Shown: positions 9,353-9,600, counted from the stretch's first letter. The stretch is DNA of 51,912 bases from a virus (IMGVR_UViG_2718218100_000010), one strand, 5' to 3'. A program made the numbers and translations. The notes: generated by a model from the sequence alone, not told the origin.

Positions 9353-9395
9353 TCTGTCCCCCTCTCCTGTCTGATGTCTGAATCTGTTTATGCCC

Positions 9396-9427
9396 CAAAA
9401 ACGACAGGCACCCCGGAGGGTGCCTGT
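9396..9427 (-). terminator. Terminator-like hairpin inside the I-J intergenic region (minus-strand orientation)
   Basis: Nine-bp stem acaggcacc/ggtgcctgt; on the minus strand it is followed by TTTTTGGGG. Confidence 0.45.
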
Positions 9428-9561
9428 GTCATGACGGAATAAAATTTCTGAATTTCTTCACATTTTCTGTACGCCCCCGTGGCAGATATCATTCCCGGGC
9501 GTTACAGTTTTTTCGGGCCAATAAAAACAAAACTCCCTGTGGTTAATCTTCATTTTCTGTT

Positions 9562-9593
9562 CCCGCAGCCTCCATACACTGCGGGATTTTTTT
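9562..9593 (+). terminator. Terminator-like hairpin inside the I-J intergenic region (plus-strand orientation)
   Basis: cccgcag...ctgcggg followed by ATTTTTTT on the plus strand, convergent with the hairpin at 9396-9427. Confidence 0.45.
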
Positions 9594-9600
9594 ATTCTTT

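Follow-up and report, generated by a model that had tools for sequence, protein, structure and literature searches.

The 248-bp spacer between the tail genes I and J of a 51,912-nt viral sequence (IMGVR_UViG_2718218100_000010, the whole of which is referred to here as the window) very probably constitutes a self-contained small RNA (sRNA) gene of the PasB/EcOnc22-24 family, encoded on the plus strand, antisense to the tail operon, and describable, judging from its sequence, as an "sRNA moron". An earlier sequence-only reading had left three options for the spacer, namely the scar of a lost moron, an sRNA locus, or a partial terminator adjusting the amount of J; the second is borne out, in that the spacer corresponds to the gene of a published, Hfq-dependent sRNA family. 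With the members of that family it shares the position between I and J, the antisense strand, the terminator, the core, and similarity in both sequence and structure, and the same layout, an I-J gap holding an antisense sRNA, is common to the window, to prophage PP6 of EPEC E2348/69, and to prophages Sp11, Sp14, and Sp15 of E. coli O157:H7 Sakai.

The spacer interrupts a lambdoid tail operon on the minus strand of the 51.9-kb window. J (5879-9352, minus strand, 1157 aa) contains six GpJ/tail-tip Pfam domains, I (9601-10281, minus strand) was recognized by its Pfam Lambda_tail_I domain and ends with a stop codon at 9601-9603, and K, with JAB and NlpC/P60 domains, lies upstream in the operon; the boundaries previously assigned to the spacer (9353-9600) are accordingly exact, with the start of J at 9352 and the stop of I at 9601. 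The start of J, identified from the ORF list, the sequence, and Pfam, spans 9350-9368 on the minus strand and comprises a GTG codon (9350-9352) and the ribosome-binding site AGGAGAGGGGGA (9357-9368), and the J N-terminus is 94-100% identical across 12 related loci. Beside this ribosome-binding site, a TGTCTGA motif occurs in two copies in the window (9368-9381) and in four copies in phage vB_EcoS_phi330 (L013), giving that phage a 259-bp spacer.

For comparison, spacers were gathered from 13 annotated phages and prophages and from about 120 IMG/VR contigs found by means of a conserved block, yielding 44 distinct sRNA bodies; these sequences are related by descent and recombination, and counts made on them overstate independent support. 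The block itself, GGAATAAAATTTCTGAATTTCTTCACATTT (9436-9465, plus strand), is A/T-rich and, on the strength of its conservation, may be an UP-element-like part of the sRNA promoter. It is nearly invariant in all alleles, even those with another left hairpin (the terminator-like structure near J that is discussed below), and is repeated before each unit in prophages with a tandem two-unit form, and it is therefore assigned to the plus-strand gene rather than to the minus-strand hairpin. A predicted sigma-70 promoter core follows at 9465-9492 (plus strand), with TTCTGT as the -35 element (9465-9470), a 16-bp spacer, and TATCAT as the -10 element (9487-9492). Among 43 distinct promoter-region variants, the -35 position reads TTCACA in 29, and the -10 position reads TATAAT in 23, AATAAT in 12, and GATAAT, TATCAT, or GAAAAT in the others; the window promoter (TTCTGT-N16-TATCAT) is thus weaker than the family majority (TTCACA-N16-TATAAT), its -10 retaining the critical A2 and T6 and its -35 matching at two of six positions, and a consensus promoter scan made no call at this site.

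The sRNA gene, delimited by a covariance model and by published probes and coordinates, occupies 9499-9593 (plus strand) with a predicted primary transcript of 95 nt. Its first segment is a conserved leader, GCGUUACAGUUUUUU (9499-9513, plus strand), which takes the form GCGTTA-N2-3-T5-9 in nearly all alleles and may be removed from the mature RNA. The annotated 5' end of PasB, derived from RNA-seq coverage, falls immediately after the U-run of the leader, and by homology with the 83-nt PasB the mature 5' end in the window would be near 9514. As the predicted start at 9499 gives 95 nt against 83-85 nt in the homologues, processing or another start must be assumed: either the leader is cleaved off or the 5' mapping of PasB is imprecise.

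Downstream of the leader, an (ARN)4 motif, AAUAAAAACAAA (9520-9531, plus strand), was recognized by its periodicity as a candidate site for the distal face of Hfq; Tree et al. (PMC4104026) describe A-R-N repeats as the motif that Hfq binds. At least three consecutive A-R-N triplets are found in 93% of the 44 distinct alleles and in 3% of shuffled sequences, and the stretch varies in sequence between allele groups while its periodicity is preserved. Next comes a conserved single-stranded core, UUAAUCUUCAU (9543-9553, plus strand), which is unpaired in both the minimum free energy and centroid folds; the decamer UAAUCUUCAU (9544-9553) is present, exactly or with one to two positions changed, in 44 of 44 distinct alleles. 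Its conservation, the folds, and the position of the PasB seed make this core the probable seed of the window sRNA.

The gene closes with an intrinsic terminator (9561-9593, plus strand), identified by fold and conservation, in which an 8-bp stem, UCCCGCAG/CUGCGGGA (9561-9568/9579-9586), encloses a 10-nt loop and is followed by U7 (9587-9593), placing the 3' end 7 nt from the I stop codon. The plus-strand terminator proposed from sequence is thus real (dG -13.9 kcal/mol, z -4.7, equalled by 0 of 200 shuffles), and it was missed by a simple terminator scan because of its 10-nt loop; 22 of 23 alleles have an unchanged stem sequence, and one compensatory change replaces G-C by A-U. Outside the terminator, the sRNA body is predicted to be unstructured. 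A further candidate, a "middle" plus-strand terminator (9468-9516, hairpin plus T6) that would end a second, upstream sRNA, is improbable: its fold is no better than those of shuffled sequences (z -0.95), its loop is the conserved -10 hexamer, and its T-run is absent from one diverged allele, and the region is more probably promoter and 5' leader. The overall layout, with its U7 tail and (ARN)4 motif, is that predicted of an Hfq-dependent, trans-acting sRNA. By this reading, the window copy would be transcribed from its own promoter in the lysogen, would be bound by Hfq via the U-tail and the ARN motif, and would act in trans through pairing of the conserved core with host or prophage mRNAs.

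Assignment to the family was examined with a covariance model (R1) built from 23 alleles, window-type sequences being left out. The model matches 9499-9593 (plus strand) over its full length (1-94) at 71.5 bits (E 1.9e-11), the sole strong match in the 51.9 kb, the runner-up scoring 19.9 bits. The window spacer can be aligned with those of E2348/69 and Sakai; at the level of the sRNA body, identity amounts to 77% with PasB, 75% with EcOnc22, and 69% with a third allele group, and the window copy is, by these sequence comparisons, best regarded as a diverged, new variant of the described family; with a body only 69-77% identical to characterized alleles, its targets may therefore differ. A search of the spacer against sRNA covariance models, a check suggested along with the sequence-only reading, returned no gathering-level match in Rfam 15, since Rfam holds no model for PasB-family RNAs; the best sub-threshold score in the spacer was for anti-hemB (18.5 bits against a cutoff of 49.5), with the terminator alone aligning.

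PasB (pathogenicity-associated sRNA B) was mapped in EPEC O127:H6 E2348/69 to NC_011601 1466343..1466261 on the minus strand, as an 83-nt RNA (Pearl Mizrahi et al., 2021, PMC8550237, Table S6). In prophage PP6 of that strain, the two tail genes lie on the plus strand, with the end of I at 1466255 and the start of J at 1466496, and the 240-bp gap between them holds PasB; as the PasB coordinates lie inside the I-J gap on the opposite strand, PasB is the same antisense gene as the window sRNA, and the reverse complement of the PasB Northern probe matches the homologous terminator in E2348/69 exactly. PasB depends on Hfq, and RIL-seq recorded 37 interactions for it in uninduced lysogens (PMC8550237); a recent preprint describes it as lying within a phage structural-gene operon, with a seed immediately 5' to its terminator (Zhu, Shabalina and Storz, 2026, 10.64898/2026.05.13.724894). 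The two genes are alike in the I-J site, the antisense orientation, the distance to the I stop codon, the terminator stem (CCCGCAG/CUGCGGG) with its U-run, the core AUCUUCAU, the ARN-rich stretch, the upstream block, and the position of the -10 element. They differ in the promoter (TTCACA/TATAAT in PasB, the weaker TTCTGT/TATCAT in the window), in the body as quantified above, in the terminator loop, and in the allele of the left sense hairpin. As the preprint defines PasB by blastn, with few nucleotide differences and 24 phage genomes (10.64898/2026.05.13.724894), the window allele probably lies outside that set.

In O157:H7 Sakai, EcOnc22, EcOnc23, and EcOnc24 were reported as Hfq-CRAC peaks opposite tail genes of Sp15 (the Stx1 prophage), Sp14, and Sp11, respectively (Tree et al., 2014, PMC4104026, Table S2); the corresponding RNAs gave a Northern band of about 85 nt that was "destabilised" in a delta-hfq strain (PMC4104026), and they have since been listed as target unknown (Sy and Tree, 2021, PMC7873438). 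The coordinates in Table S2 of Tree et al. (NC_002695.1) are shifted by about +128 bp relative to NC_002695.2, at least from 2.17 Mb onward, an offset calibrated on HnrS (EcOnc10), whose promoter, seed, and terminator were located in the current record. Once this offset is applied, the EcOnc22-24 peaks are located within the I-J gaps of 240 bp, immediately 5' to the plus-strand terminator. Taken at face value, the published coordinates would place the Hfq peak over the left hairpin, a reading overturned by the HnrS calibration and by the probe sequence: the reverse complement of the EcOnc22/23/24 probe matches, at 32 of 35 positions, the sRNA body on the antisense strand of the Sp15 spacer, 5' of the terminator. 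EcOnc22-24 agree with the window gene in locus, strand, and architecture, and over the left hairpin and the 110 bp nearest J their spacers show almost no difference from that of the window, whereas they differ in the body (75% identity), in the -10 element (AATAAT), in a shorter leader, and in a spacer of 240 rather than 248 bp.

PasB of EPEC and EcOnc22-24 of EHEC can thus be regarded, on sequence and position, as one gene family at one I-J site; the two sets of names are not cross-referenced in the 2021 Table S6, where the note field is empty, or in the available text of the 2026 preprint, where "EcOnc" does not occur. PasB-type copies in Sakai Sp12 and Sp9 are absent from the published Hfq-CRAC peak list (PMC4104026), and not every allele is therefore detectably bound. 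At the Sp9 locus (L179 4586-4772), K and I are absent and the PasB-type cassette stands directly upstream of J; the L homologue of this prophage, ECs_1805 (minor tail protein), is shorter than its Sp10 counterpart.

Other prophage sRNAs provide a useful comparison. HnrS (EcOnc10-12), AgvB, and AsxR are likewise short, Hfq-dependent sRNAs, antisense within the late regions of EHEC lambdoid prophages, with their own promoter and intrinsic terminator, several copies per genome, and expression in lysogens (PMC13502914, PMC4104026). They differ in location, HnrS lying between lysis and terminase genes and AgvB and AsxR downstream of PR', as well as in sequence and seed. HnrS, being multicopy and situated among the late genes, was considered as the identity of the spacer sRNA and rejected on the grounds of its location between the lysis and terminase genes (Sakai L001 ~3372-3437; supplement of the HnrS paper). 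This 66-nt sRNA, encoded between lysis and packaging genes, pairs through its seed AAUCUUCUACC with the ribosome-binding site of hha (PMC13502914), and the spacer sRNA has only UAAUCUUC in common with it. A shared hha target was also discarded, as the PasB core, aligned by eye with the hha sequence GGUAGAAG, forms 4 bp; duplex folding against hha was uninformative, being dominated by long-loop duplexes with the U-tail. The window carries its own exact 66-nt copy of the Sakai Sp12 sequence identified as HnrS (the anti-Hha sRNA), at 26223-26288 (plus strand), antisense to late genes, which R1 matches weakly (19.9 bits, E 0.12) via a shared AAUAAUAAUCUUC-like stretch.

Of 5426 complete E. coli genomes, 785 carry the spacer, each in up to 11 copies (median 4), and it is never annotated; O121, O103, O26, and some O157 strains have the window allele at 100% identity. 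It also matched 147 phage records, mostly of Stx-converting phages, a figure that is not strictly comparable with the 24 phage genomes of the preprint, as it comes from a distant blastn search with the whole window spacer. In phage lambda the I-J gap measures 60 bp against 248 bp in the window, so that about 190 bp of the window spacer are extra DNA, and the earlier description of the spacer as insertion-like holds in this respect. A moron is characterized as extra DNA between conserved late genes, furnished with a promoter and terminator of its own; the window cassette carries promoter-like elements and a terminator. Protein-coding morons of lambdoid phages have been described (Juhala et al., 2000, as cited in PMC4104026), and they resemble the present case in being extra DNA among late genes with a promoter and terminator of their own; they differ in cargo, a protein gene as opposed to a non-coding RNA of about 90 nt. 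One such moron occupies the same junction in the same orientation: the I-J gap of Sakai Sp10 extends over 851 bp (L178 8485-9335; NC_002695.2 1963484-1964334) and accommodates sodC (Cu/Zn superoxide dismutase) on the strand opposite the tail genes; behind sodC come the 3' part and the terminator of a PasB-type sRNA, whose promoter has been replaced. The I-J site is a moron hotspot.

The family is further diversified by recombination, which has joined different left hairpins, promoter regions, and bodies in many combinations, giving a mosaic between prophages; besides at least four diverged allele groups, it includes tandem two-unit forms as well as copies interrupted by sodC or an IS element. 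Tandem units, 179 bp apart, were found in three IMG/VR contigs (L058 9949-10147, L113 4151-4349, and L133 7423-7621). The first unit of these arrays has a different body and terminator (...AACTCCTTAAGGTGACTATTCGTTCCTCCCG...CGGGAGCGTTTTTT) and, from its sequence, looks like a paralogue with another seed. In one IMG/VR variant, the sRNA promoter is interrupted between its -35 and -10 elements by the end of an IS3-family (IS629-like) element, which directly follows TTTTCACAAACTGA. A scan of genome contigs for the conserved block, in which most matches were due to chance, gave no supported occurrence outside Escherichia; the real matches were in E. albertii and in three tiny contigs of non-enterobacterial assemblies. 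These contigs, from Asaia platycodi (L018, 546 bp), Parendozoicomonas haliclonae (L026, 460 bp), and Streptomyces flavalbus (L033, 3408 bp), contain I-J spacers with 94-99% identity to those of E. coli prophages and are probably E. coli contamination of the assemblies.

Among competing accounts of the spacer, the strongest holds that it serves mainly in cis-control of the late tail mRNA, with the hairpin before J acting as a partial terminator or stability element that sets the ratio of J to I; it deserves serious consideration, yet is on balance unlikely. The structure in question (9397-9427, minus strand), found by terminator scan and folding, resembles an intrinsic terminator and is separate from the sRNA cassette. 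It precedes J by about 44 nt, and its stem contains 10 bp (9404-9413/9418-9427; 13 pairs when extended) rather than the 9 originally counted, and it is followed by CGUUUUUG, with the U-run at 9397-9401. It folds stably, as had been supposed (dG -22.7 kcal/mol, z -6.4, 0 of 200 shuffles equal). The description of this hairpin and the plus-strand terminator as convergent does not hold, because each halts transcription exiting the spacer on its own strand, the former at the left, J-proximal end and the latter at the right, I-proximal end.

Several observations favor this account, with the hairpin formed in the sense (tail-operon) transcript. Ten allele types of the hairpin were distinguished, one with a double compensatory change (C-G to U-A), and seven of eight imperfect types preserve pairing through G.U pairs on the minus-strand RNA only, the same positions being C.A mismatches on the plus strand; maintenance of the helix in this manner supports a structure in the sense RNA. 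Prophages of the Sp12 and PPompW types have an unrelated, stronger hairpin with U-runs in its place, and the 60-nt I-J gap of lambda (15445-15504; L180 746-805) likewise holds a hairpin on the sense strand, AAACCGCC UGCG GGCGGUUU, which is unrelated to that of the window and is followed by a U-rich run immediately ahead of the J ribosome-binding site. From these unrelated hairpins before J, it follows that a terminator-like hairpin at this place predates the sRNA insert. Nevertheless, cis-control accounts for some 30 of the 248 bp, and the remaining ~190 bp are explained by the sRNA gene. Moreover, Q renders the late transcription of lambda resistant to terminators, and the window has a Q-like gene upstream (33548-34210; a strong match to Pfam DUF1133, with Phage_antitermQ just below the cutoff), so that an intrinsic terminator should matter little during lytic growth. 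Candidate roles for the left hairpin include insulation in the lysogen, protection of mRNA ends, and residual attenuation. Inspection by eye for a minus-strand promoter, from which a sense sRNA ending at the left hairpin could arise, revealed no convincing hexamers.

An improbable alternative is that the antisense sRNA acts in cis or on sister prophages, pairing with the I-J late mRNA to bring about cleavage or altered expression of J. Full complementarity between the sRNA and the intercistronic late transcript, the several related spacers per genome noted above, and the mosaic shuffling of their alleles between prophages would all favor such an activity. However, no translation signal would be covered, since the duplex would stop about 150 nt upstream of the J ribosome-binding site at one end and 7 nt past the I stop codon at the other, and for the homologues it is Hfq-mediated interactions in trans that have been reported from uninduced cells (PMC8550237). 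A long shot would unite this account with the preceding one, making the I-J junction a two-part regulatory node, shared by co-resident lambdoid prophages, in which an sRNA made in the lysogen pairs with the I-J region of late mRNAs from whichever prophages have a similar spacer and, jointly with the hairpin before J, controls processing or stability of the J message. If this were so, one prophage could limit or tune tail-tip production by its neighbors or by superinfecting relatives, and the diverged alleles would be specificity variants.

Very little credence can be given to the notion that the spacer is an inert scar, left together with its terminators by a protein-coding moron since lost. 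In Sakai Sp10 the I-J junction is indeed occupied by sodC, the sRNA promoter being gone and the 3' part of the sRNA remaining, and an IS3-family element does lie within the cassette of the IMG/VR variant described above; however, the window cassette has its upstream block, -10 hexamer, ARN motif, core, and terminator all present, homologous cassettes are transcribed and bound by Hfq (PMC4104026, PMC8550237), and diverged alleles would not be expected to conserve the -10 and the core position by position if the element were a scar. The remnant part of the sequence-only reading thus falls, with the terminator, core, and promoter-like elements in place and the spacer recurring across the 785 of 5426 genomes.

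The notion of a small sense-strand protein (31 aa, MKINHREF..., 9553..9458), with the antisense RNA as a type I antitoxin-like regulator, is barely credible and already largely refuted by loss of its start codon. In its favor, the ATG faces the CAU conserved in the sRNA core, Sp15 offers both an ORF of 39 aa and a Shine-Dalgarno sequence (GGAGAG), and PhiR12_5 has an annotated 32-aa hypothetical protein at this place. Against it, the ATG is missing from 22 of 44 distinct alleles (CGT or TGT in place of CAT), the ORFs vary in length (22, 31, and 39 aa) with C-termini that differ wholly between alleles, and the peptide has no hydrophobic, transmembrane-like segment. A type I toxin-antitoxin system was accordingly rejected, the conserved small hydrophobic ORF that typifies one being absent, and the earlier statement that the spacer contains no convincing ORF is upheld, since the minus-strand ORFs of 31 and 34 aa lack an ATG in at least half of the related alleles.

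Read as a PasB/EcOnc22-24-family gene, the spacer is not junk, nor does it represent a new class of element, and its recognition as a copy of a published prophage sRNA removes a false lead. The PasB set defined by blastn is narrower and less mosaic than the family as a whole, and as long as Rfam offers no model for it, automated scans will keep flagging I-J gaps. The family-wide alignment, with its conserved core and ARN motif, provides a starting point for target prediction and, likewise, for asking why EHEC strains retain up to 11 copies.

Elsewhere in the window, gathering-level Rfam matches were obtained at 31531-31785, 36454-36628, 44840-45028, 50178-50356, and 33155-33401, comprising AgvB (plus strand; the copy itself at 31531-31592) beside STnc100 (minus strand), sok, isrK together with C4 antisense RNA, RalA, and three tRNAs. 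These RNA genes make up the set of an EHEC-type lambdoid prophage.
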